DNA of 64,000 nt from Magallana gigas (taxonomy: Eukaryota): positions 21,548,281-21,612,280 of the forward strand of contig NC_088861.1 in NCBI RefSeq assembly GCF_963853765.1, in the 5' to 3' direction. This document shows, piece by piece, positions 1,577 to 48,060 of the stretch. Positions within the stretch are counted from its first letter, which is position 1. Each line of letters starts with the position of its first letter. A model generated the notes under the pieces. It searched no databases and was not told where the DNA came from. It saw only the letters and a program-made list of their open reading frames with translations. The translations under genes and the position numbers were made by a program.

Positions 1577-1680
1577 TAGTCTCGTTCAACCAGACGCTCA
1601 GCTGTCTCCGTAAATCTCCGACAACAGAGCTGCTCGTCGGAAATTTACGGAGACAGCCGAGCGTCTGGTTGAACGAGACT
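1577..1680. mobile_element. Foldback MITE (about 100 bp hairpin element), copy 1
   Basis: Near-perfect inverted arms TAGTCTCGTTCAACCAGACGCTC.GCTGTCTCCGTAAATCTCCGAC...GTCGGAAATTTACGGAGACAGCCGAGCGTCTGGTTGAACGAGACT. No clear target duplication at this copy. Confidence 0.7.
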
Positions 1681-1942
1681 TGTAAAAAATCAGCTCAAAT
1701 AACGTTACGTCCGCCATGTTGCCGTTTAAATTTTGACGCTTGCCCTGTAAAGAAATTTATGAGGCAACCACGTGACGCGATTCATCCAATGACGTCGAGA
1801 CATTCTAGTCCGAGGCAAAACAACAGGTTTTGTGCATGTAAAAGATGAAAAAAAGTCTTAATACATTGCATAATGGCGCGAAAACTATCTGCAATATGCA
1901 AATTGTAAACCCCGAAAACTAAAAAAGGAATTAGGTAATAAA

Positions 1943-4271: not shown

Positions 4272-5477
4272 TTGAAAATGTCGTCATCAAAAATTGTGTC
4301 CGATGATTACCGAGAGATTGATTTTAAGATACATTACGACTATTACGGAGAAAAAAGATGCACCATGATTGGAGTTTCATTGCGTGAACTACTATCCCTT
4401 GGGTATGTTAATTGGCCTGGAAGGACTTATTCAGTCACAGATAAGATACCTGGGACGGATGCCGGTCTTGCGCATCATGTACAAGGATGATGAAAATGAC
4501 TTTATTGATATGATGGAAACCAATTTCAAGAAATTCATTCGACAAGTAAGATCAATTCAGATTTGTGATCGCGCTGTTGTTAATCTTAAAGTAACTGAGG
4601 GTTCTTCGCCAGCCGGAAACAAAGTTGGAATATCGGACGACAGGTCTAAATCTAAGTGCGTAAATGTTGAGCAAGATCCGGGACCGCAAGCGAGAAAAGG
4701 CTTGGATTTCCCAACATTGTCACAAGATTCTGAAGCAAGTATGTTTGACTTCTTCGAATATAAATCCCCCCTTGATTATTCCCTTCAATACATTGAGGAG
4801 GAAATGAACCAGTTGGGGGTACAAGTCCAGTCTGCCAAGGAGCGCCTGACAGAACTCACGGATAGGTATTGTGCAGTTGTTCAGGGCCGATGGAAACAGT
4901 GCTCGAACTGTCATTTGCGACTGGATCACAATATTCGACAATGTCGAATCGACAAATGCGTTACCTCTGAACAATGTTGAGATTTGAACAATTAAACATC
5001 CCGATCAAAAATTGATTGTGGATTCCGCTGCCGATACTCTAAAAAAGCTTGAACGTGCATGAATTGTCACATAAAAGAGACGAATATGAAATGAGACTAA
5101 AAGCGAAAAACAGTGCATCCCAGTCCTTTTTACAAAGAGTAAGAACACACCTCATAAATGGCAACAAAAATAAATATCTTATACCAACGGCAGAATGGGT
5201 GATTCCTAAATCGGCTGCAGTTAACGTTGATTTAGCGAAGCTTGAGAAGCATTTTAAAGGAAAAGTCCCCGCGGAGTTGGAAATAGTATCCACCCTATTC
5301 GAAAACATTATAGCAGGATACGACAAAGCCAACGCCCCCCAATCTCCCATAGCGAGTACTTCAACAAATCCAGCGGGGAGACTACTGGAATACAACTCGC
5401 TAATGGCAGTGAAATTCCCGCGATTATCTGGTAAGACACTTAATTTAGATCTTTGTAAAATTTACGTTTGCTGTTTG
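4272..5477 (+). CDS. PB1-domain protein-like coding region split over three frame-linked segments
   Basis: 4272..4490 (IDFKIHYDYYGEKRCTMIGVSLRELLSLG) and 4369..4980 (LGRMPVLRIMYKDDENDFIDMMETNFKKF) together form a PB1 fold signature, then a coiled-coil segment and a C/H-rich tail. ORF 5049..5570 returns to the first frame. This implies short introns or frameshifts. The ORF runs into an (AG)n microsatellite. Confidence 0.35.
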
Positions 5478-6860: not shown

Positions 6861-7682
6861 CATTTCACACATTTTCTATCTGAAAACCCTCAGCGGAACC
6901 CTCTGTATATGATCTGTTACCTAGACAAATTGTGAAAAATTACCAACCACAATATATTTTATTTCACAATATTAGGAACTTTGGAATTTGATAAATTGCA
7001 AACATAGCGAAATTTCACCTTTGTAAAAAAGTATTCAGTAAGTTTGTTGGTAAAATCGCCAAAACTTTCTTCTTTTTTTTTTATATCGTAACAAATACAT
7101 GTAATAATTAAGCAATATATATATAGTGCCTGTTTGGGAGGATAACAGTGGAAATTGACACCCTGAGAAAACCATTGTCAACCGACGCGGATTACTACCA
7201 GGTAATGTCTCTGATTGTACCTTTTGCAAAACCAATATTTACGATGCTCTTTAATCTGGATAGAGCTATGCAAAGTTCCCACCAAGGCTTTTAAAGATGA
7301 CAATATGTATTTCTTCTATAACAATACACAATATAATTATATACACACCTTATAAGTTGAGGCTATATATATTTGTTGCATGTTACAGGTGCTGCGGTTC
7401 ATTGACCATCAACTCCCAGAAAGCATTGCTTTGGAGGGATTTATTGCAGATTTTGAAGTAGCCCTGTGGAAGGCCTTAAAGGACCGGTTCCCTGGAACAC
7501 CCATCCAAGGCTGTGTGTTCCACTGGACACAGGTGGTGTTAGGAAAGTCCAGGAGCACGGACTTCAGGTAAATGTAAATTCTAATGCACTTGAATGCAAT
7601 ATTTCCTACTGGTAAAACTTAGTTAATAATTCAGTATTTATCAACATAAATTAAACGTTATATTGTTTGATTTCTATACATC

Positions 7683-8313
7683 AATAATCAAAGTACTGAA
7701 GTACTGACGGGAGTTGATTTTATCGATGATCATTTATTTTAAAATCAGCTTATCTTGCATGACAATTAGTTTCTAGTCTGTATTTGAATTACACAGTTTT
7801 TTATTAAATGAATTTTAGACTTTTCTGACAAGAATTTCGAGAAACCTCATATGAATCATGTGCAATATTTAAAGATAGATTTCAAACTATGTATAAGTAA
7901 TTAAAGCAATTCTAAAAATGTTAGGGATCCAAGCACTATTGATATCGAACTCTAGTCGCGTTCAACCAGACTCTCGGCTGTCTCCGTTAATCTCCGACAA
8001 GCAAGAGAGCCTTTCTGCTTCTCGTAGATTTACGGAGACAGCCGAGCGTTTGGTTTAACGAGGCTATATTTAACTCTGGCGTAGGAATACACGAGACTAT
8101 AAAAATATCTTAGTTTTTCGTATTATATAAAATCTGACTTTTTTCAAAGTGTTTTATTGATAAGTTTCCTTAAAAAACAATGGTTCAGCATACATTACTT
8201 TGAACTTTTCTATTATTTTCAAGAACTAAGTCTTGTGCTTATAGGTCCAGACACTGTTTCACTTTCGGTTTGCCAGAGTAACTGCATAGGAGAGTTGATT
8301 AAAATCAACTCCC
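7683..8313 (+). repeat. Dispersed repeat family A, copy 1 (carries foldback MITE copy 2)
   Basis: Homologous to 50927-52043 across both sides of the foldback element. Possible short TIR GGGAGTTGATTTTA. Confidence 0.6.
7953..8066. mobile_element. Foldback MITE, copy 2 (inside repeat family A, within the MULE-remnant intron)
   Basis: Same arms with a few substitutions. Flanked by tatcgaactc and tatttaactc, an 8/10 target duplication. Confidence 0.75.
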
Positions 8314-9137
8314 AATAAAAAATCAGTATTTCTTTGCAAAATGAAAATATACTGAGACAAATTTGTTATCAGCACAAATAGCATTTATTAGGTTTAATAT
8401 GTAAGCAATTGGTTTTTACCAATTTGGTATGGCAATGCTGTTGTCCATGAATGAATTAAATGGTACTAGTATTTTTATTCAAGGTACAAATACTCATACA
8501 TGTTTATTTCTTACAGACTGCCTATAACAAGAAGCACTCAGTCTACAAGTTCGTGCGCCAACTCCTGGCCCTGCCATTCGATCCTCCCACCTGAGCACAT
8601 TGAGGAGACCTTCCTACGTCTGGATGGTCGTGCACCAGAGGTTCTTGCTCCAGTGATGGACTTTGTTTACAGGACGTGGATCCGTTCTTCAGTCTTCAAG
8701 ATCGATCACTGGAGTGTGTTCATGACTTCCATCCGGATGAACAATGATGTGGAGGGATAGCACAACCGCCTAAACACCAGTGTTGCCACCAGGGGATTGG
8801 TTCCCTTCTACCATCTTCTTCTTGTTCTGCACAGGGAAGCGACCAACATCACAGTGCAGATGAAGATGGTGTCTGAAGGGAAGATGCAGAGATTCCAAAG
8901 GTAGAGGACCTTACAGGTGGAAGGTCATGTCTTCAAGCTCTGGAACGACTACTGTGAAAGATCGATCAGCACGAGTGAACTGTTAAAGGGCCGTGCTGCC
9001 ATTTATGGACCACCAACTTTGAACATGTGATTCATATTGATATCGTGACACTTGTGTCCCCCTTCGTAAATTGTGCATCTTGTAATGTAAAAATAAGTAT
9101 GTTTGTTATTTGTTATTTATTTATTTATTAAGTATGT

Positions 9138-9357
9138 TTGCAAGGTAGGAAGGCATTATTTGTATTGAAAAAAAATATTAGAAACATGTTTCTTAATCAT
9201 AATACTTTGCTATCATTGTTTGATTGCTTTGTTGGCAGTGTCATTAACTATGCTTCTGAGGTATGGGGTTCATTCAAAGCACCTAATATATTGAGAAACT
9301 TCATCTTGATTTTTGTAAACATATCTTGGGAGTTAAAAGGTCAACTTGAATAAGGAC
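9138..9357 (+). pseudogene. 3' fragment of a non-LTR retrotransposon (LINE, CR1/L2/RTE-like) ORF2 tail
   Basis: LLSLFDCFVGSVINYASEVWG matches the conserved post-RT motif L.LYK.LVRP.LEY...VW. A second frame gives IEKLHLDFCKHILGVKRST, matching LEK(V/I)Q..F.K.ILGV. Confidence 0.45.
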
Positions 9358-11275
9358 GCTGTCCTCTGCTGTACCAAAGAATGTTCAATATAGTTAAGTT
9401 CTGGTAAAAAAAAATACTGTACCATAATAATTGTATTATTCAACATTGCTACTAAACACTTTATGACTGAGTCGAAAAACATAATGCAAAAAACTGGTTG
9501 TATCATGTTAAAGATTTTTTTGCCTATGTTTAAAATTCATAATGAATAAAAAGGTGGATGTAGCTAAGAATATAATAATCGTTGTTGTTCTTGAAAGGAT
9601 TTTAATGAATTAAATTTAATTTAGACAAAATTACAAAATGAGTAAATAATTGAATACAACTACAAGCAATTTAGTTCACACAGTATCAATAATTTCAGTG
9701 GCAAGTGAAAAAGTTGCTCCTTAATGGTAAACAAAATGTAGTAAACATACTACAATGCAAGAAATTAAGGTATATCACTCCTCATGTTTTGATTTCATTG
9801 CGCAGATGTTCATTATATTTTAAATGAATATGATTTTATTAATTTAAACCTCACAAAAAGATCATCATTTCATAATTACACAACATTCGTAAAGAAAATC
9901 CATTTGAATTCAAGAAACGAACAAGTTTTGGGGGGAACTATTTTCTCGTGCGGAAGGTTTTTAAGTCGAAAATGACAGAAACAAGCAATTTTATGAATTT
10001 TCAATATACTTTTCTTTTTATAATACTTTATTCACTATTCTCATTTTTAACATTTGATAGGTTTGTGACATGTTCTATAGGTTCTCTATGACTTGTACTA
10101 AACTAAATTTTGAGAGAGTGGTAGACGTTTAGCATAAAATCATGCAAATATATAGAAAATGTCTAAATTTTTTGAAGCCAAATTTTGCAATAATTTTACC
10201 TTTGAAGCCATGTATCTAAAATTTGAAATCACTGACCCCCATGTTTTATTATGTCAAAATGATACTGAATACATATGTAGGCAAACTGGATTAATCTTCT
10301 AAAATTCTTGATATTCAAAACTATTATAAAAATTGTCTATTTTAAGTGCAAAAAGGTCATACAAACATTTATGCAGTTCATGCAATTTTTTTTTTTCGTA
10401 ATCCCTCTATTCAGTGTGACCATTGTACATAATTAAAAGCAACATTTAAAAAAAAAGAGTTTGCTTAATCGAAAATTCTGAAACAAATCCTAATCAGGCT
10501 GAAATCGCATTTTAGGTGCAAAAAGGTCAAATTTATTTGACCATAACTCAGAGGGATGAACACTGACCTCCCATTATCTTTGTATTATTTAAGTGTGTTT
10601 TGTCTACAGATTTCAATAGAATACTTCTCAAGAAGTTCTTGATACAAGAAGATTGAGGAGTGGGATACCTTAAGAACATGATAAGAAAATAATTTAAAAA
10701 CCACAAACTAATCATTTCTGATATTCAATCCGTCTCCTTTAATTATTTCTGCCTATAGTAATTATTGTAAGTATTTTTACTACATTTAGCAATAATATGG
10801 TTATATGGATTAATTGTCTCAATTCATCTTTTAACTAGGCCTATTTTCTCCGTAATTAGCTGGGGGAGCGCCTCTGATATGCTCATTGATGAATGTGAAG
10901 ATCATCTCGCCAAGATGAAACTAGACTGGACCGATAACAACCAAATGTGCAAATGTTCATAAAATTTTCATAGAAAGATAAATTCTTACATAAATTATAT
11001 CAATTCATTCAATTCAAAATATATGTTAAGCCAGTAGCTAGTGAATTATTTCGTCGTAAGTAATAAGTTACATTGAAAAACTCACCTTTCTTCATAAACA
11101 GACATTTCCATGATAAAGGTGCAGTCGTACATTGTGTAACAAATTCAATTTTTTCAAAAATGTGTGTCTAGAATGAGAAACAAAGAGATAAATGAATAAT
11201 ATACAAATGCCGAATTCACCAGATGCCGAGTTAACCGGCTGCCGAGTTCACTATTCTCGGTGCCGAGTTCACCAG

Positions 11276-11376
11276 TAGTCTCGTTCAACCAGACGCTCGG
11301 CTGTCTCCGTAAATCTCCGACTCTCTGCTCGTCGGAGTTTTACGGAGACAGCCGAGCGTCTGGTTGAACGAGACTA
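11276..11376. mobile_element. Foldback MITE, copy 3, with a perfect 10-bp target duplication
   Basis: Element TAGTCTCG...CGAGACTA is flanked on both sides by AGTTCACCAG (11266-11275 and 11377-11386). Confidence 0.85.
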
Positions 11377-11401
11377 AGTTCACCAGGTGCCGGGTTAACC
11401 C

Positions 11402-13096
11402 TGTGTCATATAATATTTTGATACTGCGAAATATTGAACCCGGGTTCAATATATTATGCGATATTATGAACCCGGGTTCAAAAAATCGCTGCGATATATT
11501 GAACCCCCCCCCCTAAAATATCGAACCCCCTACTTATTTCCAATTCCCTTTGGAGAGGGGGTTCAGAATATTATGGCTGCGATATTTTGAACCCCCCTCT
11601 ATTTTCTATTGCTATTAGAGAAGGGGTTCAAAATATTATGACTGCGATATATTGAACCCCCTTCTTATTTCCAATTCCCTTTGGAGAAGGGGTTCAAAAT
11701 ATTATGGCCGCGATATTTTGAACCCCCTCTCCAAAGGGATTTGGAAATAGGTTGGGGTTCAATATATCGCAGCCATAATATTTTGAACCCCCTCTCCAAT
11801 AGCAATGAAAAATAGAGGGGGGTTCAAAATATCGCGGCCATAATATTTTGAACCCCTTCTCCAATGGGAATTAGAAATACACATAGAGTTAGGGGGTTCA
11901 ATATATCGCAGCCATTATACATTTTGAACCCCCTCTCCAAAAGCAATAAAAAATAAAGGGGGGGGGGGTTCAAAATATCGCGGCCATAATATTTTGAACC
12001 CCCTTCCAATGGGAATTGGAAATAGGTTGGGGGTTCAATATATCGCAGCCATAATATTTTGAACCCCCTCTCCAATAGCAATGAAAAATAGAGGGGGGTT
12101 CAAAATATCGCGGCCATAATATTTTGAACCCCCTCTCCAATGGGAATTGGAAATAGGTTGGGGGTTCAATATATCGCAGCCATAATATTTTGAACCCCCT
12201 CTCCAGTAGCAATGAAAAATAGAGGGGGGTTCAAAATATAGCGGCCATTATATTTTGAACCCCCTCTCTAATGGGAATTGGAAATAGGTAGGGGGTTCAA
12301 TATATTGCTGCCATAATATTTTGAACCCCCTCTCCAATAGCAATGACAAATAGAGGGGGGTTCAAAATATCGCGGTCATAATATTTTGAACCCCCTCTCC
12401 AATGGGAATTGGAAAGAGGTAGGGGGTTCAAAATATCGCGCCCATAATATTTTGAACCCCCTCTCCAAAAGCAATGAAAATAGAGAGGGGGGGGTCAAAA
12501 TATCGCGGCCATAATATTTTGAACCCCTTCCAATGGGAATTGGAAATAGGTTGGGGGTTCAATATATCGCAGCCATAATATTTTGAACCCCCTCTCCAAT
12601 AGCAATGAAAAATAGAGGGGGGTTCAAAATATCGCGGCCATAATATTTTGAACCCCCTCTCCAATGGGAATTGGAAATAGGTTGGGGGTTCAATATATCG
12701 CAGCCATAATATTTTGAACCCCCTCTCCAGTAGCAATGAAAAATAGAGGGGGGTTCAAAATATAGCGGCCATTATATTTTGAACCCCCTCTCTAATGGGA
12801 ATTGGAAATAGGTAGGGGGTTCAATATATTGCTGCCATAATATTTTGAACCCCCTCTCCAATAGCAATGACAAATAGAGGGGGGTTCAAAATATCGCGGT
12901 CATAATATTTTGAACCCCCTCTCCAATGGGAATTGGAAAGAGGTAGGGGGTTCAAAATATCGCGCCCATAATATTTTGAACCCCCTCTCCAAAAGCAATG
13001 AAAATAGAGAGGGGGGGGGGGGTCAAAATATCGCGGCCATAATATTTTGAACCCGGGTTCAATATATCGCGGGGTTCAAAATATTATATGACACCG
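11402..13096. repeat. Foldback-like element or satellite array: 131-bp dimeric unit of palindromic 65/66-bp subunits, with terminal inverted repeats
   Basis: Period 131 bp, for example ttcaat at 12034 and 12165. Each subunit is a dyad: gaaccccctctcc...agaggggggttc plus aaaatatcgcggccataatatttt. Orientation flips near 11730. The two ends are inverted repeats of each other: start tgtgtcatataatattttga, end tcaaaatattatatgacaccgg. Confidence 0.8.
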
Positions 13097-14787
13097 GTAC
13101 CCAAATGGAACGTAAAATGACCCAAATTGACCCAAATGGAGCCCAAATGGAAACAAATGAACCCAAATGGAATCACAAATGGAAACAAATGGAAATTGAA
13201 TGGCATAATTGAAGATTTTATTTAATAATTTCAATCATTATTTGATGAATAATCAATAAATATAAATTCTAAAACGACATTTTCTTGTGTTGTTAATGAT
13301 TTTTTATTGATATATGAATTTATATATAACTATAAATAAAACTGTTGATATATAATCATATCGAAATATCTTTAAATTATAACAATATAATTCAAATATT
13401 TATTTTCGATCTTGGTTAAATAAATCCACAATGAACCAGCAACAATTGCCAACATGGTTCTAGATCAAATATCGGACAGATTGTTGCACCAGTTTTACTT
13501 CCCAGATGCCAACGACACTGCCGTCAGGGCAAGCGGTGATGGGGATTGCCTGTTCAACGCCGTGTCCACATTGATGATTTACTCAACCATAAAATGTGAC
13601 ATCAAATGTGACAAACCAAATAGTGACTTGTGAAAAATCATTATAATAATAAAAACACCAATTTATGACTTTTTTCATAAAAGAACTTATTAATATAATT
13701 GTTCTTGAGTAAGATTGTTTGAGGTAACTGAGTCCGGGCCCTGGTAGGGCGTCGTGTTTAACACGATAGGAACAGTTTCTTAATTTAATACAGTCTGATA
13801 TTTCTGTTTGTACAACGATGTAGTTACAATATTAATATATGATTTATTAATAGTTTAATGGTACCAAGTGCTGAAAATATTTGATGTAGAATTATAAGAA
13901 AAATGTTATTCTATCTAGGGAAATATGCATAAATAATAGTTGTCTTCTAAATATAGATGTAAAAATGTATATAAGTTAGTTAGATGGCAAATTATTGTTA
14001 TGCATGTTAAATAATTTAGGGGCTGTAAATACATGTACAGTGCTGTTCTGTTGTTTCTTTTAATAGTGCATTTAATCATTCAAATAGTAGCTCAAACCAA
14101 TCCTGTAGTGCATGTTTTGATATTATGTTTTTTGTTTGCTTATACATGTAAAGTATGTGGTTCATTTTTCATGCATCAATTTTTGAATTAAGTTTTTGAT
14201 TTTCAAATCGATTTTTGGGCTAATTTTTTTTTAAGGTCTTATGAAATTCTAAGTAACCATTAATTATTTTAACATACATATTTTATTTTTAAACAAAAAA
14301 ATTTTTTTTTTTTAATATTCTGCTCGGAAATTAGGCCCTATAATGTTTACGTTTAATTTTTCAATTCGTTCTTTTGACTTTAAATATTTTTATTTGTAAT
14401 TATTTCAATTTGTTCTTTTGGCTTTAAATATTTTTTATTTCAAAATTATGGCCTCCACGTGGCAAGAGCTGGACAGCGTTATACTACTTATAACGGCAAA
14501 CAATCCCATAAATAGATTAAAAAAAATTAAATCATGCATTTAAATCGTGAAACAAATTTATAAGGCTACATTATCTAATTCTTTTTCGATTTGGTCAAAA
14601 ATTGTTGTTCAATGTTTTTTGTTGTTGAAAATTTTCAATAAAAAACTCATTTATTAAAAATAATGATTGAAATTTTTAAATAAAATCTTCAATTATGCCA
14701 TTCAATTTCCATTTGTTTCCATTTGTGATTCCATTTGTTTCCATTTTGGTCATTTTACGTTCCATTTGGGTCCATTTGGGTAAATCG
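13097..14787. mobile_element. Non-autonomous TIR element, family B (CCCAAATGGA-rich termini), copy 1, left end truncated
   Basis: Ends are ...cccaaatggaacgtaaaatgacccaaatt... and the inverse ...ccatttgggtaaatcgacgcaccc. It has no ORF. Its left terminus lacks the terminal GGGTGCGTCGATT and abuts the foldback-like array. Confidence 0.7.
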
Positions 14788-16497
14788 ACGCACCCAAATG
14801 GAGCCCAAATGGAAACAAATGGAAACCCAAATGGAATCACAAATGGAAACAAATGGAAATTGAATGGCATAATCGTAGATTTTATTTAATAATTTCAATT
14901 ACATGATGAGTAATCAATAAATATAAATTCTAAAACGACATTTTCTTGTGTTGTTAATGATTCTTTATTGATATATGAATTTATATATAACTATTAATAT
15001 AACTGTTGATATATAATCATATGGAAATATCTGATTCAACCATCATATGTGACATCAAATGTGACAAACCAAATACCACCGAATGTGATAAACCAAATAG
15101 TGACTTGTGAAAAATCATTATAATAATAAAAACACCAATTTATGACTTTTTTCATAAAAGAACTTATTAATATAATTGTTCTTGAGTAAGATTGTTTGAG
15201 GTAACTGAGTCCGGGCCCTGGTAGAGCGTCGTGTTTAACACGATAGGAACAGTTTCTAAATACAGTCTGATATTTCTGTTTGTACAACGATGTAGTTACA
15301 ATGTTAATATATGAGTTATTAATAGTAAAGTGGTACCTATAAAAACTTATTAATGAAATTGTTTTAGAATAAGATTGTTTGAGGTAACTGAGTCCGGGCC
15401 CTGGTAGGGCGTCGTGTTTAACACGATAGGAACAGTTTCTAAATACAGTCTTATTTCTGTTTCTACAACGATGTAGTTACAATGTTAATATATGATTTTA
15501 TTAATACCGAGCGCAGCGAGAGGCGGGCGAAGCCCGCCTCGCGAAGCGAGGATTAATGGTAACACGTATATATAAGAAAATCAGTGAAAAATGAAAGTTG
15601 AATCAGGGGTACTAAGGCCCAAAATAATTTCTTCCAGCCCTGGGCGCCGCCATATTGGCAGCCATTTTGTTTTTAAAAAGTTAGTTCGATCATTGATTGA
15701 CTGGTACTTATTGATGTTTATTGCCCCTAAACTCAATTAAAATGTTCCAGTGTTTCAATGGAAGGTAATTTTAATTAAAAGAAATAAAAGAGGACACCAG
15801 ATAAGTTCCAATAGTGCTTTAATCAAGAAACACGACTAGGTGTATGTATGTCTTATCAAATTATCAGATGGAAAATAAAAACATTAACATCAAGGAACTG
15901 ATCTTTTAGATACTGAATAAAGTATTCAATTTTATTACCGCGGCATTTATATGAATTAAATCGATAAACAATGAAAGAAGAAGTTAAAAAAAGTTCGGAA
16001 TAATAAACGTAACTCTCTTCGGCTATTTCCGAAGACAAAACGTTGTACGTTTTACGTCTGAAAAATGACGTCATAATGTAGACAGAGCACGCGACGTTTA
16101 GTAAACTTTGGCTAATGATTTGAGTAGGCAACCAGGCGAACCCTACTGTGTGCGTTTCATATAAATTTAATTTGTTCTACAAAAATCAAACTGCACAGTG
16201 TGAAATCTGCGCTCGGTCCAACGGTCACACCGTTTATATATTAGTTAAGTGGTACCAAGTGCTGTAAATATTTGATGTAGAATTATAAGAAAAATGTTGT
16301 TCAATGTTTTTTTTTTAAATTTTCAATAAAAAAAACTCATTTATTAAAAATAATGATTGAAATTATTAAATAAAATCTTCAATTATGCCATTCTATTTCC
16401 ATTTGTGATTCCATTTGGGTCCATTTGTGCTCCATTTGGGTCCATTTGGGTCATTTTACGTTCCATTTGGGTCCATTTGGGTAAATCGACGCACCCT
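14788..16497. mobile_element. Family B element copy 2, head-to-head with copy 1, containing an internal duplication and a nested 727-bp insertion
   Basis: Starts aaatggagcccaaatggaaac, shares internal sequence with copy 1 (15040-15500 matches 13560-13870), and ends gggtaaatcgacgcaccc at 16497. It is interrupted at 15509-16235. Confidence 0.55.
15509..16235. mobile_element. Unclassified 727-bp insertion inside family B copy 2, starting with GAA-triloop hairpins
   Basis: Absent from the homologous site in copy 1 (ttattaata|gtttaatggtacc). Begins CCGAGCGCAG followed by hairpins ggcgggc-GAA-gcccgcc and cctcgc-GAA-gcgagg. The inverse CTGCGCTCGG lies near the other end, which also contains a TGACGTCA motif. 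Confidence 0.45.
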
Positions 16498-16575
16498 CAT
16501 TCGTGTAACATGTAGACTGTCAATGCCTGTCTGATATACGATAGAGACAGAGGGCCAGTCTACATGGTCTATGTA

Positions 16576-17035
16576 GGTATCACACCGGTAATCGGCCAAT
16601 CAAAATGAACTTAGTCAATTGTAGTTCCATATATACTTCATAATTATTTTTTTTCTTGACTGTAGTTTTACATTTTCCTTTACTCAGTTTTAAAATTTTT
16701 TGTACCACTGAGTAGGATATTTCATGTATTTTGTTAGGTGATGATTTTTTTTCACAGGAACTACTTCTTTCAGGGCTCATGCAGCAGCTTCCTGGGGAGT
16801 GTGCAGTCTGTTTACATACAAATGGAAAACACGTGGTTTTGAGGGTAGACCTGTTTGGAGCTAGATATTTTGAGAAAATGCAGTATCGCTTGCCCTTTTT
16901 ATTGTGTTAGCTGATGAGATAGGTAACAAATAACATTTCCTCCGAATATTTTGTCATGAAAAATACAAACTGATTTTTAAGAATTTTTTCCCCTCTATAG
17001 TGTTATATAGTGAAAACAATTACCGGTGTGATACC
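16576..17035 (+). mobile_element. Second copy of the GGTATCACACCGGTAAT TIR MITE (460 bp), about 80 bp upstream of the RPL24 leader
   Basis: ggtatcacaccggtaatcgg...caattaccggtgtgatacc. Flanking ATGTA/TGTAA share TGTA. It is the reverse complement of the 51299-51757 copy. Confidence 0.8.
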
Positions 17036-17110
17036 TGTAACATGGTGCAATTTTTCACTTTCGGGAAACCTCGAGTAATTTCGCTACATACGTAAGAATC
17101 GAGCGAGGTA

Positions 17111-17153
17111 TCCCGAAAGCCTACTTTCGGTCTTTCAACTTCCGGTCTCAAAC
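17111..17153 (+). promoter_or_regulatory. RPL24: Putative pyrimidine-rich promoter / 5' leader of the ribosomal protein L24 gene
   Basis: Pyrimidine-rich tract tcccgaaagcctactttcggtctttcaacttccggtctcaaac lies immediately 5' of the ATG. The first exon ends just after the start codon, as is typical of ribosomal protein genes. Confidence 0.4.
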
Positions 17154-17158
17154 ATGAA
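17154..17158 (+). CDS. RPL24: 60S ribosomal protein L24, exon 1 (ATG plus AA, phase 2)
   Basis: ATGAA is followed by the GTGAGT donor at 17159. Joined to exon 2 it reads [20 protein letters not shown]..., matching the RPL24 N-terminus [18 protein letters not shown]. Confidence 0.75.
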
Positions 17159-17292
17159 GTGAGTGAAAATATTGTATACCGACAATAATCTGTAAAATTC
17201 TGATATTTTTTGGGAACATCGCGAAGAATTAAATTGTTAATGTAAGCAATCAATGTATGATTTACATGTTTTAACTTATATTTTTCATGAAG

Positions 17293-17368
17293 GATCGAAC
17301 TGTGCTCTTACAGTGGGTATAAAATATATCCAGGACACGGAAAACGTATCGTAAAAGTTGACGGAAGG
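17293..17368 (+). CDS. RPL24: 60S ribosomal protein L24, exon 2
   Basis: Acceptor AG at 17291-17292. Exon encodes (K)[25 protein letters not shown] and ends before the GTAAGA donor at 17369. Confidence 0.85.
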
Positions 17369-17499
17369 GTAAGAGCTGATTTTGTTTCCAGTTTCAGAAC
17401 AATGTGAAATTTATGGTTATTTTTATTATGTGAAAAATCTCACGCCATTATTGGAGTAAAATGTGTGTCAGCAGGTCCAGTACAATTACTAGATTAGCT

Positions 17500-18540
17500 A
17501 CGTAGCTTAATACATATTCTCTTTTGAGAAGTGGACAGGCATAGCCTACATCCACTTCTCTTCGCAAGCCCTCATATTTTGATTCTGAAAAACGTGTAAA
17601 TGTTGGAACCAAAGACGGTTTACGTTTCGACTCATGTTTCCACTCCACTTTCCCTGAATTTTCGTAACAGACCTACTATTTCTACATTTTAAACATTATT
17701 GCATCCATATATCACAAAAAAATCAACACTAACTCGCTGTCAAATCATTTTCGCAACTTCTACATCCCGGGTTTAAATTGTGTGTATCACATTGTTTATC
17801 TAGGTCAGCGCAGATTGAATGTTTATGTTTCGGATAAAATTGGAAACCTATTTAAGACAATAATGTCGAAAACGTAACTGAATCAACTTAATCTTACAAT
17901 GTATAAACAAATACTGAGCCAAATAATTACAAAGTGGTATGTCTTCCCTTTTTAACCATCTCTTATGGTGACAAAATTTGTCTACATCTGTTTTTAACAA
18001 TAAAATGAACATTGATTAATATAGCATACAAGAAAGATTAAAATAAAGAGTTTTATGTGACAAAGTTACTTATTTTATTGTATGCATTTGTGTTAATTTG
18101 TCTTAAATTGTAAAACCGTTCTATATAGCTCTGTGAATTTTAGAAAAATACCTTTAATCTAAAGTCTACAATCGGAGCACTATTTTCCGTTTTTTCCGAC
18201 TCTAAATTTTCTACTTTTTAAACCACCTATAGCGAATGATCTCATAATTTAAAACCGGAATGTAGAAGTTGAGAAAATGATTTGACAGCGGGTTAGTGGT
18301 GTTTTGTTTGTAATATATGGATGCATTTATGTTTAAAATGTAGAAATAATGGGTCTGTTACGAAAATTCAGGGAAACTGGAGTCGAAACATGGGTCGAAG
18401 TGTAAACCGTCTTTGGTTCTGACATTTACACGTTTTCCAGAATCAAAATATGAGGGCTTGCGAAGAGAAGTGGATGTAGGCTATGCCTGTCCACTTCTCA
18501 AAAGAGAATACTTAATACATAGCTTTGTTTACCTACCTGA
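17500..18540. mobile_element. About 1-kb element with roughly 270-bp terminal inverted repeats, in RPL24 intron 2
   Basis: 17520-17790 is the reverse complement of 18250-18530, for example gagaagtggacaggcatagcctacatccacttctc against its inverse. It has no ORF. Confidence 0.55.
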
Positions 18541-18884
18541 ATTTATTTATAGTCTGTCCCAAGTTATTGCTTCCATCACTTTTTGATGATTTGTAATGAA
18601 AATACACATACCTGTGAAAGAAGTACAGTTGAAATCGATGAAATGGAAAATATTCAAGATATCTTCATTGACAAATTATCCATTTTCACTCATAAAAGTG
18701 TATAGGAATGAAAACAATTTTCTTACGGAGATATATAATGGGAAATGTTTGCATCTTTTCTCTATTCGGAAGTACTAATGGCTGATGCAATGCAAATCCC
18801 CGTAGACTTTCTATTTCGGGATGTGTATTGAAACCTGAAGCGATAGAAGGGGCATTTCAAAACAGAAAATCTAGACATTTTTCT

Positions 18885-19795
18885 GGTGCATCGATTTACC
18901 CAAATGGAACGTAAAATGACCCAAATGAACCCAAATGGAAACAAATGGAAATTGAATGGCATAATTGAAGATTGTATATATAATAATTTCAATTATTATT
19001 TTAAATATATTGAGTTTTTTTAATTGAAAAATTTCTGACCAAATGGAAAAAAGAATTTGATAATGTAGCCTTATCAATTAGTTTCATGATTTAAATACAT
19101 GATTTAGATATTTTTTTTCGAATCTATTTATTGGATTGTTAGCCGTTATAAGTAGTATAACGTTGTCAAGCTCTTGCCATGTTGAGGCCATCCTAATAAA
19201 TATTGAAAGCCAAAAGAATAAATTGAAAAATTAAACATATAAATTATAATTTCCGACCAAAAAAAGATTTTTATGTTTTAAAAATAAAATATGTATTTTC
19301 AAATGATTATAATAGTTACTTAGAATTTCATATGACCTTAAAAAAATTCAGTCCAAACATCGATTTATTTTAGAAATCAAAAAGTACTTCAAAATTTGAT
19401 GCATGGAAAATGAACCACATACTGTACATGTATAAGCAAACAATACTAACTTATATACATCTATATTTAGAAGAAAACTATGGTACTTTATTTTCCAATA
19501 TCAAAAATAAATATTTGAGTTATATTGTTATGATTAAAAAGGTATCTTGAAATGATTAAATATCAATAGTTATATTAACAGTTATATATAAATTCATATA
19601 TCAATAAACAATCATTAACAACACAAGAAAATTGTTGTTTTAGAATATTCATATTTATTGATTCTTCATCATATAATTGAAATTATTACATAAAATCTTC
19701 AATTATGCCATTTAATTTCCATTTGTTTCCAATTGAGTTTCCATTTGGGTTTATTTGGGTCATTTTACGTTCCATTTGGGTAAATCGACGCACCC
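18885..19795. mobile_element. Family B element copy 3 (complete, 911 bp) with 9-bp target duplication, in RPL24 intron 2
   Basis: Termini are ggtgcatcgatttacccaaatggaacg... and ...cgttccatttgggtaaatcgacgcaccc. Flanked by CATTTTTCT on both sides (18876-18884 and 19796-19804). Confidence 0.8.
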
Positions 19796-22537
19796 CATTT
19801 TTCTATTAGTGGATGAACGTAGTTTAAACACAAAGGTATTTATTATTTTCGAAATATCAAGCGAAGAGTGGTGGAAGCAAAAGCTCGGGATAGAGTATAG
19901 CTACTCAATCATACTTTTGTTTTAAAAGGGCATTTGTACAGGATATCCCATAATAGCTGATACCATTAATTCTATGAATAACTTTTGATTAAGTTAATTT
20001 GACAAAAAATTAAATTTAATTGATCTGATACATTCACACATTTTATACATTAAATGTTTTGTAATTCTGTGAGTTAAATGACAAATAAAAATCAGTCCTT
20101 GTACTTCTGTGTATTTTGGAGGCATTAGTGCAACCCTTTGACCCAATTACAACCGTTGTGTAGCGATTCTGTTTAATTTTGTAGACAACTGTAAACAAAT
20201 GGTTTTATAATTATTTTAGCAATAATTTGGCAGTATTATTAACTAATTACAAGTTTCAAACTAATAGTAATGTCAGCATGAAAAGTAATAAACATCAGTT
20301 GTAATTTTCAATGCACAGTATCACCTGTTTTTATAACCCATGAAGATAAGACAGTCGCAAGTTCCTAATCACAAAAGGGTTTAACTGAGCATGTGAGAAC
20401 GTCTTATGAATTTGATGATAATCATTTTATTGCCTTTGAGTTTAATTAATTAACACAATCGTAAACTCTGCATACAGGGCGACTTCAACTTCTCTTTCGG
20501 AGGAAACTCCGGCAAAGTTGCCGATCACAAAGCAAGTCGTCCTCTAGGTTGGTCACTGTATAATAATACTTTAGTCTTTTAATGGATATTGGATAATAAA
20601 AGGATATCTGTCACATGACTATCAATGATAACGACTTACTATCGATTGTCACCGACCTGCTGCCTTCAGCGATGATTTTTCGATATTCGGCGACTATCGT
20701 AACAACACTAGAGGATTACCTGTGCACCTGTTAACCCTTAGCTGCCTCACCTGACAATTGTCGCACCGAAATTTCAGGTCTGCCACTGCTATGCGCGACT
20801 ATGGTCGTTTTTCCGAGAGCGAGTTATCTAAGGTTTCCACAAGCCTCGCTTTGAGCAAAAACACGATGGCTATGATTGGTCAATTGATGTGTTCGGAAGG
20901 TTTCTAGAGTTTTGCAGAGTTTAAAATAAAGGCTATAGAGCAGTAAACTTCCAAAGAATGTTTTGAATTTGTAGCCAAAGTGGCAAAAGTAGAGTGAAGC
21001 CACGAGACACAAATTTTGGAACTTTTTTCACGGGGATAGCAAAGACGAAAATACTGTTGATGGATTTAATCCTGCAGTACATAACTTAGGAGATGTTAAT
21101 TTATTGATTTATGTGTCTTTAATGAACTTTGTGCCAAGAAATGACCGAGAATTTGATGCCGATCTGGAGGTAGGCTAGTCGCGTGTTGATCCACCGCCAT
21201 TGAATATCCCATCCCATTCACCAGAGAGGAAAAATTAAACACTTAAATGGAGGATTATGAACCTTTATCGTGTCTAAATTAAATTTTTAATGATATTATG
21301 TTTATGGAAATTGTTGTTTAATTGATCAACATCTCTACCGAGAGATTGTGCAGTCTGAGAATGTAAACCAGAACAACATAAAAAAAAAAGCATTGATAAA
21401 GTGTTTCATGTATTTCTTTATTTTTCAGTAATTGTTTACCCAATTTTCAAAATTAAACGAATAAAATTGAATCTCACAATGTATGACTTATTGATATACT
21501 AAAGAACTTTTACAGTCATTTGGGTTCTCAAATATGACAATTGAAGAATGGAACAATGAAAGGCATTAATTTTAATTGATTTTTACATTTGAACATACCT
21601 AGATTGATATATACAAGATAAATGAGGAATATGAGCATTGCATTGAAATCTTCAATATTTTCTCTCGCATTTTAAATATATATAAAGTTTGGTAACTGTA
21701 GCAATAAATATATAGTTGCTGTGATATATTATTTTAAACTCTATGGTCAATTACCATTAATTGTGAATAATTAATTCAGCAGTGGCAGCCATCTTTGCGA
21801 AAGTTAAAGCAGCAGCCTAAGAGTTAAGTGACACCTCCGGATATATATTGTTTTCTTTGGTGTTTCAGAGTAAAATCTGGATGTTAAAAGGTCTTTCTTA
21901 TTACTATATAAGGCCTATGCATTACTATATATGCAACTGATATAAGAAAAACCGGAAGTATTAGTAAAAATTAAATTAGACAAAAACATGTCATACTAAG
22001 ATCACGGTAGACAGTACTTTGATGGATTTTGATATATTTAAGCTACATAGCAGCTTTTTGAGGCCATTTGTCTGAATGAATGAGAAAATAAGTTATGTAG
22101 AGCCCTGTCAGTTTTAGAACATATTAAAGAAAATGCTTTGTTGCTGAGATAAATCATTGAAAATATTAGATATTTTGCAAGTTTAAGATTATTTTAAAAA
22201 GTTTTATGTTAAAAAAATGAGATGTATTAGAACTGTCCACCAATTGAGTATTGTTGCCCATTTTTCTCTATTTTATGATGATAGATAGATAGATACTTTA
22301 TTTCTAATACTGGGCCCTCTTGGGCATATAAAGGTAATAAAGAAAATAATGATAAAAAATAAATAAAAAAATACATACACACATACAAGGAAAGGGAGGG
22401 TTTCAAAATGATAGTTTATATTTATGTTGAATAAAAGATGAGTCAAAGTAGGAATCTATTCAATTTTCTATTTGCTCAACAACTAAAAATTCTGTGAGTG
22501 CTAATTCTCATATATAATAGTAACCATCATGTTGTAG

Positions 22538-22785
22538 GTTTTCCAGTTCCTCAATGGAAAATGCGAGGCTTCACACAAAATGAAGAGGAATCCACGCGAG
22601 ATTAATTGGACAGTGCTATACAGAAGAAAGCACAAGAAAGGCAATCTTGAAGAGATTGCTAAAAAGAGAACTCGCAGGACTACCAAGTTTACACGTGCTG
22701 TCACTGGGCTTTCTCTTGCTGAAATTCAGGCAAAGCGAAACCAGAAACCAGAAGTGAGGAAGGCACAGAGAGAACAGGCCATCAG
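22538..22785 (+). CDS. RPL24: 60S ribosomal protein L24, exon 3
   Basis: Acceptor ttgtag at 22536-22537. Encodes [82 protein letters not shown](R), near-identical to the central region of metazoan RPL24. GTTAGT donor at 22786. Confidence 0.9.
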
Positions 22786-23167
22786 GTTAGTTAATTTCAA
22801 GGATTTGATTTTATATACTGGCATGAATAAAAAATTAAAATTATTGGAATGCTGATGGGATTTATCTAAGAAATAAGCAGCAAGTTATAAAGTTCACTGA
22901 GATATGAACTTGGTTGGTCACATGATCAAATCCTAGAATCTTAAAGGGCTTCTCAAAAGATTTGATCATGTACCAACAAAGTTCTTATTCCAGTGTCTGT
23001 GTTGAATAATTTTATAACAAATAATTTTAAAACTAAATTTTTTTAATTTAATTTTATCACTTTTACGTATATTAAGTTGTTTATTCTCTAGCAGAATTTT
23101 ATTGGAAGTTTAAAAAATCAAGGAGACTTCCATTATTGGACACCCGCACAATGCTAGAACCATTTTA

Positions 23168-23662: not shown

Positions 23663-24046
23663 TTAACAAGGCCTTGGACTTTCAGTAGGACATAACTATC
23701 TGTTTCTTTCGTCAAAACAAGTTAAAAATGATGCTGGCTTCAGGTGAAATATGCACTGATTGAGTAGTCTTAGCTCAAAAGCCAGACAAATCTTGTTGAT
23801 TTCAAAGAGCAATGGCTGAGTGGCCTACAATGAAATAGACAGGCCTATGTCACATTGCAGTTTGACACCAACTACCCAAAGTCCAAGCTTTTGTTAAAAT
23901 GGTTCTAATATCTATTGATAGTAAAATAAAACAGCTTTGTAAATTTTTTAAAAACTTTTCAAATTTGTTAAACTGAATTGATTTGATGTATTCTTACATT
24001 TTATAGATGAAAAGTTTTGTAATTTTGTTATGTAAATGACAAATAA

Positions 24047-24725
24047 ATGAGTCTCTATGGAACACCATGGCTGCCTTATAGCATTAGACTATAGGTACAT
24101 TATGTCAAATTACCATTACATTATGTCAAAGTCCATTACGTGGTGTGAATATATCTTTACATTTGGTCAAATCGTTATTACGTGATGTCAAAAGCACGTT
24201 AGGTGAAGTAAACATGTCTTTACATTATGTCAACTTTTCATGTTGTGATGTAAAATCATCCTTACGTTATGCCAACATTGTACAACCAAAGGTCAATACA
24301 TCATGACATTATTTCGACACTGTATTACATGGGGCGAATGTATCCTTACATTATGTCAACATTTTATTACATGCTTTCAATATATCCTTACATTATATCA
24401 ACACCGCAGTACGTATCGCGATTCTATCCTTACATTATGTCAACATTTTATTACATGATATCAATGCGTTTTTACATTTTATCAACACCTTAATACATGG
24501 TGTTAACTCATCCTTTCATTATGTCAACACTTTATCACTTTATGTCAAAAGTACATTACTTGATACGAAAATGTCTTGACTTTTTGTCTAAACTTTATTA
24601 CCTGATGTAAATAAGTCTTTACATTAGGCAAATTCTCTATTCCGTGATGTATACGCTCTATTACTTTAAGTCGAAACATCATTCCGTTATACAAACACGA
24701 AATCCTTGGTCTTTGTATATTTGTC
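24047..24725 (+). repeat. Left arm of a large inverted repeat (about 680-bp arms, 1.6-kb spacer) containing an about 41-bp minisatellite
   Basis: Reverse complement of 26338..27003. Internal repeats of tccttacattatgtcaacattttattacatg. ORFs 24269..24493 and 26544..26780 are identical translations of the two arms. Confidence 0.8.
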
Positions 24726-26337
24726 ATGTTTTAAATACAAAATTTACTATATAGAAACGGTACGCCGATTTACCCAAATGGACCCAGAAAAACCCCAACA
24801 AAATGGACCCAGAAAAACCCCAACAGTAGATACTAGTAAGAAGCAGTGATTTAATCATACAAGAATGAAAATATATATAGGCCTATATATAGGTCTTCTG
24901 AAAGCTGTAAAAGACTTAGTTGCTGACAATTTAATTTCTCGAGAGTGAATGAACATTTACTTAAAATCCAAGTTTTCTCGTGCTCATCGGCCCTTGAATA
25001 TTTAAAATGAAATGGATATAAAATCTAAAAATAACCCCTTCATTGGGGTTTTTTTTGGGGGGGGGGGGGTTTAAAATTTTATTTTTGATTTATACTTTTT
25101 TTACTTCAATAATATTCAAATTACGTTCGTTACTACACACTCAGTCATTTAGCAGTCAGGGTTCTTTATCGTTCCAAAGCCTGTATGTCGTGGCACAGAC
25201 ACCCAGTGCATATTTAATTTTCTAAAATTTAGTCTCAAAGTATTTTGTAGTTAAAATAAAGTATTTAGTAGTTAAAAGTAAACGTTGCTATTGCTATCTT
25301 AAATTAAGGATACTGACCCTAACTACACATGTAGGTATGGCCGTTCTGCTACAAAATTATTATGCTATGAAAATGATTTTTTTCTTATTGCTGCAGAGGG
25401 GGTGGGAATGGTGTTTGTGGAGGGGGTACGCTACGTTCCTCTGAATAAATTTTCTCCTTTTCATCCAAGAAGGCACTTGATAACTTATATGAAATAAAGT
25501 CTACAAATAAATTACAAGAGATCTTTAACCCCTTTAAAGACCTTCTCCATCTTGATATAGATGTTTTTATGAAATGTTTGTTTTAGGTAATTGTTCAGAC
25601 AGAGGGTATAAATCAGAAATATGTCATAATAAAAACGCACACAAATAAGAGGGGAACTGTATTCGCCGATTTCAGAATTATTATAAAGAAAGGCAAACAC
25701 TTTTGGTAGAATCGGTACCGTCTTCAGGGTTTGCCCCATACATGTAACTTACTAAATTTTAATTAAATGAAATAATTCGACAGCATGAGTGTTGGTTTTT
25801 GTAAACAGTTAAATGTATAATCATGTTACATATATTTTCGTTGTAAGTATAGAATAGGCGTGAAAATAGGTTGAGAAGGAAATTTACGCTCATTCCGTTC
25901 TGTTCCGTTGAATACCAATATCCACAGGGGTAATAATATATTGCGGAACGTAACGGAACCAGAATCTTACAAATAAGTCAAGTACTGCTGACATTGTAAT
26001 TTTAAAGATGGTATGCTTTGGAATGCGTTTGGTTTGTTTTAAATCTCTAACTAATAGAGAATATTTTTTGCTAGCTTAAACTAGTTAGTAAGTTCTGCCG
26101 TGAAAATACTGTAATATGTTAATATTAGAGTAGTAAGTAATATAATTATGTATATTTTTCTTTAAACAACGAATTTAAACAATAAAATTAAAGATCAATC
26201 TTATTTTGAAATGAAATGAATAAAAACAAAATAAATCATTATTTTTAAATTTCTATTTTCCCATTGGATGACCCTTTACTGGTTCCGTTCTGTTCCACAA
26301 AGTTTCAATAACCCCTGGATACATTTGGGTAAGCTTA

Positions 26338-27003
26338 CCGTTTCCTTGTATATAGAAAGGCCGATGTATCCGTGTTCGCGTAACGAAATGATGTTTCACC
26401 TTAAAGTAATGGAGCATGTACATCATGAAATAGAGAACTGACCTACAGCAAAGACTTATTTACATCACGTTATTAAGTTTAGACATAACGTCATAAACTT
26501 ATGATATCAAGTTATAAAGGTTTGACATAATAAAACGATATATTTACACCATGTAATAAAGTGTTGATAAAATGTAAAAATGCATTGATGTCATGTAATA
26601 AAATGTTGACATAATGTAAGGATAGAATCGCGATACGTACTGCGGTGTTGATATAATGTAAGGATATATTGAAAGCATGTAATAAAATGTTGACATAATG
26701 TAAGGATACATTCGCCCCATGTAATACAGTGTCGAAATAATGTCATGATGTATTGACCTTTGGTTGTACAATGTTGGCATAATGTAAGGATGATTTTACA
26801 TCACAACATGAAAAGTTGACATAATGTAAAGACATGTTTACTTCACCTAACGTGCTTTTGACATCACGTAATAACGATTTGACCTAGCGTAAAGATATAT
26901 TCACACCACGTAATGGACTTTGACATAATGTAATGGTAATTTGACATAATGTACCTATAGTCTAATGCTATAAGGCAGCCATGGCGTTCCATAAGTCTCT
27001 TTA
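26338..27003 (-). repeat. Right arm of the large inverted repeat
   Basis: For example, 26941-27000 is the reverse complement of 24050-24110. Confidence 0.8.
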
Positions 27004-28060: not shown

Positions 28061-28067
<7 letters not shown>

Positions 28068-28097
<30 letters not shown>

Positions 28098-28140
28098 AAT
28101 TGGTCTTCGTCCGTCGTCGTGCGTTCGTGCGTCGTGCGTT
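28068..28140 (-). repeat. Inverted-orientation terminal module (perfect palindrome plus (CGTC/CGTG)n) bordering the 168-bp satellite
   Basis: aggtcacctgagtcactcaggtgacct, then gtcttcgtccgtcgtcgtgcgttcgtgcgtcgtgcg, the reverse complement of a GACG-like repeat. A related motif actcaggtgaccgttaaggccaattggcc recurs at 30205 on the far side of the array. Confidence 0.55.
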
Positions 28141-28199
28141 AACAATTTTACATTTTTAACTTCTTCTTGAAAACTACCAGGCCAATCGTTACCATTTTT

Positions 28200-30060: not shown

Positions 30061-30414
30061 AGTTTTTCACCAAAATAATAGGTTTCACAGTTCTTTTTGA
30101 AATGAGGTCGTCATTACAAATTTATTATTTTTTTACTCCAGTATGAAACCTAATTAATCAGATGCATATATGAGACTCCATGACAAGTTTTAGTATGGGA
30201 TATATGCTACTCAGGTGACCGTTAAGGCCAATTGGCCTCTTGTTTCTTTGGGCTGGTTGATTTTAACAGGGCTGACAAATTATACTAGCTGTCAGCCCTG
30301 AGAGTCTAGCTAGTTTTTTGAAGAGTTTAAAACACTGATAACAGTTGTAGAAATATTTGATGTTGACTTAGACTTGTGAAATTCACTTATTGGTTTCTGT
30401 TCTTTAATTTTTAG

Positions 30415-40941: not shown

Positions 40942-40951
40942 CTCTCCCCCC
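40942..40951 (-). other. Polypurine tract GGGGGGAGAG immediately upstream of the 3' LTR
   Basis: Plus strand ctctcccccc abuts the LTR start on the element strand. Confidence 0.5.
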
Positions 40952-41049
40952 GGTCGCAGAATGACTTCCACGTCATTCAACTCGGAAGCTGCATATATCT
41001 GAAGAGTAACATGGCATAAAATACATATATTTACAATTTAAAAAAAATA

Positions 41050-48039: not shown

Positions 48040-48057
48040 GTCCCAACGTGGGCGCCA
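48040..48057 (-). other. Primer-binding site TGGCGCCCACGTTGGGAC
   Basis: On the minus strand the 5' LTR is followed by TT then TGGCGCCCACGTTGGGAC. This is complementary to a tRNA 3' end ...GUCCCAACGUGGGCGCCA and shares TGGCGCCC with tRNA-Lys-type binding sites. Confidence 0.6.
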
Positions 48058-48060
48058 AAA

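Follow-up and report, generated by a model that had tools for sequence, protein, structure and literature searches.

Within a 64,000-nucleotide stretch of the oyster Magallana gigas (contig NC_088861.1, hereafter the window), several unrelated non-autonomous DNA transposon families carry target site duplications (TSDs) of 9-10 bp, and the decayed transposase gene of a Mutator-like element (MULE) lies beside them. [quoted passage not shown] The original prediction proposed that MULE transposases had done so. Our analysis makes it fairly probable that these are Mutator-type non-autonomous families mobilized in trans by MULEs at other genomic locations, with the adjacent remnant as a bystander. 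What stands of the proposal is that the 9-10-bp TSDs are real, recurrent and recent, that an oyster MULE clade generates TSDs of 8-9 bp and that one family, termed F, pairs with this clade; what does not stand is a match at the ends, as the termini of families A, C and D correspond to no MULE that we sampled.

Direct reading of the flanks by manual curation bore out the three independent families predicted to carry such duplications (A with 10 bp, B and C with 9 bp), and all three named termini are found where they had been placed. The terminus of family A, TAGTCTCGTTCAACC, has 8 matches in the window versus 1.26 expected, and that of family B, GGTGCGTCGATTTACCC, has 5 versus 0.03 expected; for family C, CATCTTCCAAAGT is found at 31900 and its partner, which is degenerate, at 32361-32373. 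With families D and F included, TSDs of 9-10 bp recur in five families (Table 1). Given the base composition of the window, a 9-bp match at fixed positions has a chance of ~9e-6, and a 10-bp match one of ~2.5e-6. A TSD length of 8-11 bp is a hallmark of Mutator (Dupeyron et al. 2019, PMC6446971). Families A-D all have terminal inverted repeats (TIRs), contain no long open reading frames (ORFs) and give no blastx match to MULE proteins. Duplications of 10 bp are not known to have an origin other than Mutator in the Repbase classification.

Comparison with an orthologous allele can offer a more direct view of how such duplications originate. The C. angulata ortholog (L002), retrieved via the RPL24 protein, is collinear with the window over 8037-54616 at 98.5-99.8% identity. 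Family D, which had not been noticed in the original prediction, is absent from C. angulata, and L002 displays the empty site ..GTAGCTTAATACATAGC.. with a single CTTAATACA. The 9-bp TSD of D is thereby proven. Family F presents the opposite situation. This element of 1542 bp (L002 7449-8990) is found in C. angulata alone, flanked there by CCATATTGGC, and the empty site in the window proves its 10-bp TSD. Both empty sites prove that the 9- and 10-bp duplications arise on insertion, and that such insertions took place after the two alleles had diverged. Altogether, six transposon presence/absence differences distinguish gigas from angulata. The contrast elements in this comparison leave other marks: family E has duplications of 4-5 bp (TGTA, TTGAA and TTAA, among the copies 16576-17035 and 51299-51757 and a relative at 9769-10669), a TIR element of 1.76 kb occupies a TTAA site, a long terminal repeat (LTR) retrotransposon is flanked by ATTC, and a Helentron-like satellite carrier has no TSD. 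Since these other elements make 4-5-bp, TTAA, ATTC or no duplications, the 9-10-bp class is one among several active classes rather than a feature of the locus itself.

MITE A is a 101-bp near-perfect hairpin with a 45-bp stem and a 9-nt loop (DNA fold -58.1 kcal/mol, z=-18.7). Two independent insertions, copies 3 and 4, carry 10-bp TSDs. Copy 2 is a paralogue of copy 4 that represents the same old insertion rather than an independent one, because its host repeat is a paralogue of the host repeat of copy 4. Copy 3, which also occurs in C. angulata, is a later insertion into the terminal repeat array of the MULE remnant, and a sequence resembling its empty site can be read from paralogous MULE copies. 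Upon deletion of this copy together with one copy of the TSD, the repeat register of the L005 array is restored; the 10-bp model fits, and a TA model does not. Accordingly, a Tc1/mariner reading of the TA..TA ends of MITE A as TA duplications was rejected (12 bases surplus relative to the paralogous arrays). Both target sites of MITE A (11266-11275 and 51208-51217) hold GTTCA/TGAAC, which is found within its TIR as well (CGTTCAACC), although with two sites only this may be chance. Scanning the window with Rfam and for tRNA genes gave no match, the MITE hairpins corresponding to no curated RNA family, and the A terminus, searched as an exact pattern in JGI metagenome contigs, returned 0 matches.

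The flanks of families B and C can be read in a similar manner. An apparent extra C at the right of family B copy 3 most likely belongs to the TIR as its last base, given that each of the three right ends of B in the window reads GCACCC. Family C and its flanks are identical in C. angulata. A 75-bp C-like mini-foldback, CATCTGG..CAAAGATG, flanked by a 9-bp repeat that is degenerate (TGATTGCCC / TGATTGTTC), is located in the C. virginica locus L013 at 21936-22010. As a C-like element is present in this species, family C appears to predate the Crassostrea/Magallana split.

The MULE remnant, which we designate family X, had been described as a transposase remnant at 7143-8905 with an in-frame stop. 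Remnant and stop are both real, but comparison with the loci L004 and L005 places its extent at 7189-11399. Homology to these loci begins at ~7189, ~13 nt before the conserved exon 1 splice donor, and not at 7143, and the stretch 7143-8905 represents the middle part of a dead element, 4.2 kb long, that retains a recognizable 3' end. Later insertions are nested in it at 7693-8314, 9769-10669 and 11276-11376. Alignment with relatives indicates that the second catalytic D, the CxxH and the E are kept, and that the first D (WYMDATF region) is gone through 5' truncation. With its two stops and two frameshifts, the remnant is a dead copy, yet a MULE member by descent. Its repaired conceptual translation matches "MULE transposase domain" proteins of oyster, mussel, coral and crustacean (best E=8e-122), several of the oyster matches carry the Pfam MULE domain PF10551, and relatives score 1.7e-12 to 2.5e-10 on this model. 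The remnant alone scores weakly (E=8e-4, 20.3 bits, under the cut-off of 27.6 bits).

The X elements of L004 and L005 end with ..GGGTTCACCAGCATTC, after which their flanks diverge, and the 3' terminus of X read inward is GAATGCTGGTGAACCCGGCAC because of these ends. The X right ends align with L004 and L005 as far as ..GTGCCGGGTTAACC; of the two terminal regions, the remnant in the window keeps only the 3' one, minus the last 7 nt. A public M. gigas gene model in UniRef, P0011 (A0A8W8JD.., "MULE transposase domain-containing protein"), shows 100% identity to exons at 4477-4866, 5136-5429, 7133-7203, 7386-7568 and 8512-8757. This model is a chimera in which unrelated upstream exons (4477-5429) are joined to the dead MULE exons, with a frameshift read through.

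Better preserved relatives allow for a description of the ends that an oyster MULE can have. The longer M. gigas members of a sister family combine an N-terminal FLYWCH zinc finger with the MULE domain (P0233: FLYWCH E=1e-6, MULE E=2.5e-10), and full-length oyster FLYWCH-MULE proteins measure 590-633 aa. PHD fingers in some relatives suggested a Rehavkus-like affiliation; the full-length oyster proteins carry FLYWCH instead. Relatives were found in molluscs, cnidarians, crustaceans, amphioxus and echinoderms. Three of four full-length clade elements are flanked by TSDs of 8-9 bp, and in all four a GTTTCGG(C/G)AC subterminal repeat clusters at the ends only. The 5' tip GGGTGC is conserved in three of them. 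The tips of the clade thus are asymmetric but conserved, with 5' GGGTGC.. and 3' GAAT.., and the 3' tip of family X, GAATGCTGG, fits the 3' pattern. Among the subterminal repeats are CGACGTTTCGGCACC, GGTGAACTCGGCACC and CCCAAATGGA. For the O. edulis element, an outer inverted repeat, AGTCAACTCGTACCC, was considered as TIR and rejected, as it belongs to a separate element hosting the MULE, whose own 8-bp TSD lies inside.

Possible signs of activity are also found in this clade. In the C. virginica protein P0238, the D, D, E triad is intact. Seven Logan runs (L006-L011; SRR18452367 and six others) contain identical intron-less contigs with a 409-aa FLYWCH-MULE ORF (P0229). We read these contigs as expressed, spliced transposase mRNA, since they are intron-less while the genomic gene has introns.

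Family F is the element that can be connected to this clade most closely. Its tip GAATTGCAGACGTTTAGGCCCC, which is of the 3' type, resembles GAATTACGGACGTTTCGGG of the O. edulis element in L001 (terminal z=8.8-10.3 versus shuffles), and an internal stretch matches L001 in blastn at 78% over 115 bp. In addition, F shares the subterminal repeat motif of the clade, which clusters at element ends only, and encodes the first 11 codons of the M. gigas MULE model P0223. Because termini, subterminal repeats and an internal stretch are common to F and the clade elements, the two form a genuine pair of MULE and non-autonomous element, with F as the deletion derivative. Shared termini, shared subterminal repeats, shared internal sequence and a 10-bp TSD, the marks of a MULE-derived element, are all found in F.

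No such connection was found for the remaining families. When the termini of A, B and C were compared with MULE TIRs, a check put forward along with the original prediction, no match was obtained to any recovered end from five lineages (family X, O. edulis, S. cucullata and two C. virginica elements), either with blastn or by alignment (z <=3), and the accompanying search for subterminal motifs common to the MITEs and autonomous MULEs found none shared. With A-D as queries against MULE loci totaling ~130 kb, the sole blastn match was a stretch of 38 bp from family C, at L013's far end and outside the MULE element. Local alignments of the 40-nt termini of A-E with the MULE ends in either orientation yielded z <=3 for all pairs, compared with 8.8-20.7 for controls. 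The CCAAATGGA repeats of B are not in L001, L004 or L005 (the loci checked), the MULE repeat motifs are not in the MITEs, and the termini of A-D show no sharing with F.

A terminus-anchored test, however, gave one signal: the pair of B GGGTGCGTCGAT and the 5' tip of S. cucullata, GGGTGCACGATG, has a score of 8.0 (empirical P 7.5e-4 before correction, one of 90 tests), which equals the score of the control comparison of S. cucullata and O. edulis 5' tips. The likeness lies in GGGTGCGTCGA versus GGGTGC(N)CGA at the clade 5' end. Since this hexamer is the 5' tip of most full-length elements, B could be a plausible client of the FLYWCH-MULE clade, which we take as suggestive only.

These observations can be best accommodated by the following scheme. 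At least four unrelated non-autonomous TIR families (A, B, C and D), along with F in the sister allele, integrated through staggered cuts 9-10 nt apart, the mark that Mutator-superfamily DDE transposases leave on integration. Their mobilization most likely occurred in trans, by MULE transposases whose genes lie in other parts of the genome. The remnant beside them, with its different termini, is a bystander that served as landing pad for MITE A. In case of A, C and D, it is TSD length alone that points to mobilization by MULEs; in case of B, TSD length together with the shared terminal GGGTGC..CGA hints at the FLYWCH-MULE clade. Several points weigh against this scheme. MITE A copy 1 lacks a TSD, and no autonomous partner was identified for A, C and D, their termini and subterminal motifs matching none of the five MULE lineages. 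The resemblance of B spans only ~11 terminal nt, is borderline after correction for multiple tests and is accompanied by different subterminal repeats. One full-length MULE, in L014, is itself flanked by TTAA only. Merlin TSDs measure 8-9 bp in the Repbase classification, and a 9-bp TSD by itself fits Merlin as well. Finally, the oyster DNA open to examination amounted to only ~200 kb.

Could the flanking repeats be chance matches or by-products of tandem repeats instead of TSDs? MITE A copy 3 resides in an array with a 16-bp period, where short direct repeats are common, and the missing TSD of copy 1 would agree with such an origin. We give this explanation hardly any credence, as the C. angulata empty sites hold exactly one 9-mer for D and one 10-mer for F, which already refutes it for these two families, while the paralogous arrays' register is regained once A and one repeat are taken out, and the per-site chance of 2.5e-6 to 9e-6 would have to be realized in five families. 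It is also very improbable that family X, in the form of the remnant and its intact relatives, supplied the transposase for MITEs A, B and C. Their co-location within 13 kb and compatible TSD lengths would agree with this source, and the terminal 16-mer of B is loosely like the X subterminal unit (GGTAAATCGACGCACC vs GGTAAACTCGGCACC, z only 1.4-2.0); as a candidate relationship this likeness was rejected, being not significant in either orientation. The X 3' terminus and the GGTGAACTCGGCACC repeats, however, occur in none of A-D, families A-E have no blastn match in two other X loci (~44 kb in all), and MITE A entered the X terminal array only after this array had formed. The neighboring remnant, with which the original prediction associated the MITEs in space, is not their driver: the window copy is dead, 5'-truncated and has a terminus of its own.

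A more serious contender, which we nevertheless regard as unlikely, is that only A and F are Mutator-type, and that some 9-bp families (B, C and D) come from a different superfamily whose TSDs measure 8-9 bp (Merlin, for example) or from one not yet described. TSD length is the sole evidence for C and D, and no MULE partner was found. On the other hand, Merlin is reported to be nearly cephalopod-restricted within the molluscs and seldom found in bivalves, while all mollusc genomes surveyed have MULEs (PMC10294476). The ~300-bp TIRs of D, as well as the long TIRs and subterminal repeats of B, are typical for MULEs (PMC6446971). Moreover, B shares the 5' terminal hexamer of the MULEs. Mobilization in trans by MULEs encoded elsewhere is the reading that we retain.

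Several known systems resemble what is seen here. Foldback elements of the FB type (Drosophila FB, the Phantom clade and Tm1 of the root-knot nematode) have 9-bp TSDs and are tied to Mutator transposases. MITE A is alike in its nearly full inverted repeat and 10-bp TSD, but differs in being only 101 bp long, in having no tandem sub-repeats in its arms and in that no coding partner was found. Muta1 of Aedes aegypti is an animal MULE reportedly shown to be transpositionally active. The oyster clade is alike as an animal MULE with intact copies and hints of recent mobility, whereas the case for oyster activity consists only of insertion differences between two taxa and transcript-like contigs. 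Compared with Mutator-like elements in general (PMC6446971), the oyster clade shares the Pfam MULE DDE transposase with D..D..E and CxxH, TSDs of 8-10 bp, long or imperfect TIRs with subterminal repeats and an internally deleted non-autonomous element, F, with shared termini. It differs in its N-terminal FLYWCH zinc finger, intron-containing gene and asymmetric termini (5' GGGTGC.., 3' ..GAATT as reverse complement), and MITEs A, C and D differ in having no terminal similarity to any sampled MULE. Work on the MITE and Helentron landscape of oysters (Cg_HINE, Pearl; PMC7492417, PMC8268682, PMC10294476) describes the same genome with abundant, nested non-autonomous DNA elements, also in introns, but makes no TSD-based superfamily assignment, and the MITEs are unclassified in PMC10294476.

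It is already known that oyster genomes are rich in MITEs and DNA transposons and that elements with 9-10-bp TSDs are routinely classed as Mutator-type, and the window is ordinary for an oyster. Repbase already has C. gigas MuDR entries, two satellites being annotated DNA/MuDR. A literature search on oyster MITE classification found no superfamily assignment, and a full-text search for five terminal sequences found no paper. What is new is local detail only, namely family boundaries, empty sites, the termini of the FLYWCH-MULEs and the pairing of F. The value is mostly one of annotation: a probable superfamily for several oyster MITEs, the termini, TSDs and domains of the oyster FLYWCH-MULE clade, and one clean pair. 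We can also imagine, although we think it rather doubtful, that oysters harbor a currently active FLYWCH-MULE system that cross-mobilizes unrelated MITEs, including a 101-bp hairpin, via very short terminal motifs. This possibility comes from the spliced transcript in seven runs, the C. virginica element with intact triad and perfect 9-bp TSD, and the differences between gigas and angulata at D and F. If true, it would add a tractable case to the very few animal Mutator systems that are active in nature; should activity be ongoing, an animal model for Mutator transposition would be at hand.

Table 1. Features of the window, followed by the full-length FLYWCH-MULE elements of other oysters with positions in their own loci
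Feature	Position	Strand	Target site duplication	Description
MITE A copy 1	1577-1681		none recognizable	
MITE A copy 2	7953-8066		decayed (TATCGAACTC / TATTTAACTC)	in repeat 7693-8314 nested in MULE intron
MITE A copy 3	11276-11376		AGTTCACCAG, 10 bp (11266-11275, 11377-11386)	inside MULE-X terminal array
MITE A copy 4	51218-51770		TATTGAACTC, 10 bp (51208-51217, 51771-51780)	split by family E at 51299-51757
Family B copy 3	18885-19795		CATTTTTCT, 9 bp (18876-18884, 19796-19804)	~120-bp TIRs with CCAAATGGA subterminal repeats; RPL24 intron 2
Two rearranged/truncated B copies and other fragments	13097-16495 (13097-14794, 14795-16495)		none readable	
Family C	31900-32373		AACTTCACC, perfect, 9 bp (31891-31899, 32374-32382)	474 bp; ~58-bp TIRs
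Family D	17515-18510		CTTAATACA, 9 bp (17506-17514, 18511-18519)	996 bp; TIRs ~275-300 bp
Family F target, empty	15650-15659			CCATATTGGC once in window; C. angulata has F between two copies of the 10-mer
Family E, contrast case	16576-17035		TGTA, 4 bp	GGTATCACACCGGTAAT..; absent from C. angulata
MULE-X	7189-11399	+		decayed 5'-truncated FLYWCH-type copy; 82-93% DNA identity to C. angulata L004 10021-12278, L005 12311-14308
MULE exon	7389-7567	+		second catalytic D (ADFE), CxxH (GCVFHW); 1-nt frameshift near 7535; GT..AG boundaries
Last MULE exon	8517-9030	+		catalytic E (NNDVEG); frameshift near 8585; TAG stops 8758-8760 (W to stop), 8902-8904
MULE-X 3' terminal region	11190-11399	-		15-16-bp subterminal repeat array (GGTGAACTCGGCACC on minus strand); last 7 nt (AGCATTC) missing
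C. virginica element	L013 8852-13588		AACCTAAAC, 9 bp	4737 bp; 5' GGTAACCCGACATTTCGGG; 3' (reverse complement) GAATTACCGACATTTCGGG
S. cucullata element	L012 5482-11963		GTTTGGAC, 8 bp	6482 bp; 5' GGGTGCACGATGTTTCGGCACC; 3' (reverse complement) GAATTCTGGACTTTTCGGCACC
O. edulis element	L001 5706-12742		GTTGTCAT, 8 bp	7037 bp; 5' GGGTGCAGGACTTTTCGGCACC; 3' (reverse complement) GAATTACGGACGTTTCGGG
C. virginica element	L014 7075-14078		none clear, only TTAA repeated	5' GGGTGCCCGACG; 3' (reverse complement) GAATTACGGACG

The window displays several further structures. The ribosomal protein L24 gene (RPL24) occupies 17155-22786, and its 5.2-kb intron 2 houses families D and B. Insertions, two of them Mutator-type, separate M. 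gigas from C. angulata at this ribosomal-protein locus and are possible markers; the presence or absence of D in particular may discriminate the two. One copy of family E is nested within MITE A copy 4 (51299-51757), and its relative (9769-10669) within the MULE remnant. Between the truncated 3' end of the MULE and a truncated B copy, 11400-13095 forms a foldback of 65/131-bp tandem units in opposite orientations, with termini CCGGTGTCATATAATATTTTGA and no TSD. A similar short motif is found in L004, 13 nt past the end of MULE-X. Another structure of ~3 kb, at 24044-27003, has inverted arms of ~650 bp with internal tandem repeats. On its inner edge, each arm has a B-like motif, GGTACGCCGATTTACCCAAATGG, and a TSD was not seen.

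Three of the contrast elements are absent from C. angulata. A Helentron-type non-autonomous element (Cg_HINE-like) at 28066-30238 contains ~168-bp tandem repeats (28301-30039); it lies in a T run, has no TSD and displays a 3' subterminal repeat, after which comes the palindrome AAGGCCAATTGGCCT. The 1.76-kb TIR element at 52298-54061, AGACCGGGG..CCCGGTCT, is inserted at TTAA and is probably of piggyBac or Kolobok type. The LTR retrotransposon at 39855-49147 has 1087-bp LTRs with TG..CA ends, a TSD of ATTC and minus-strand ORFs of 1468 and 429 aa. Its LTRs are 100% identical, and because it is missing from C. angulata, it is a very recent insertion.

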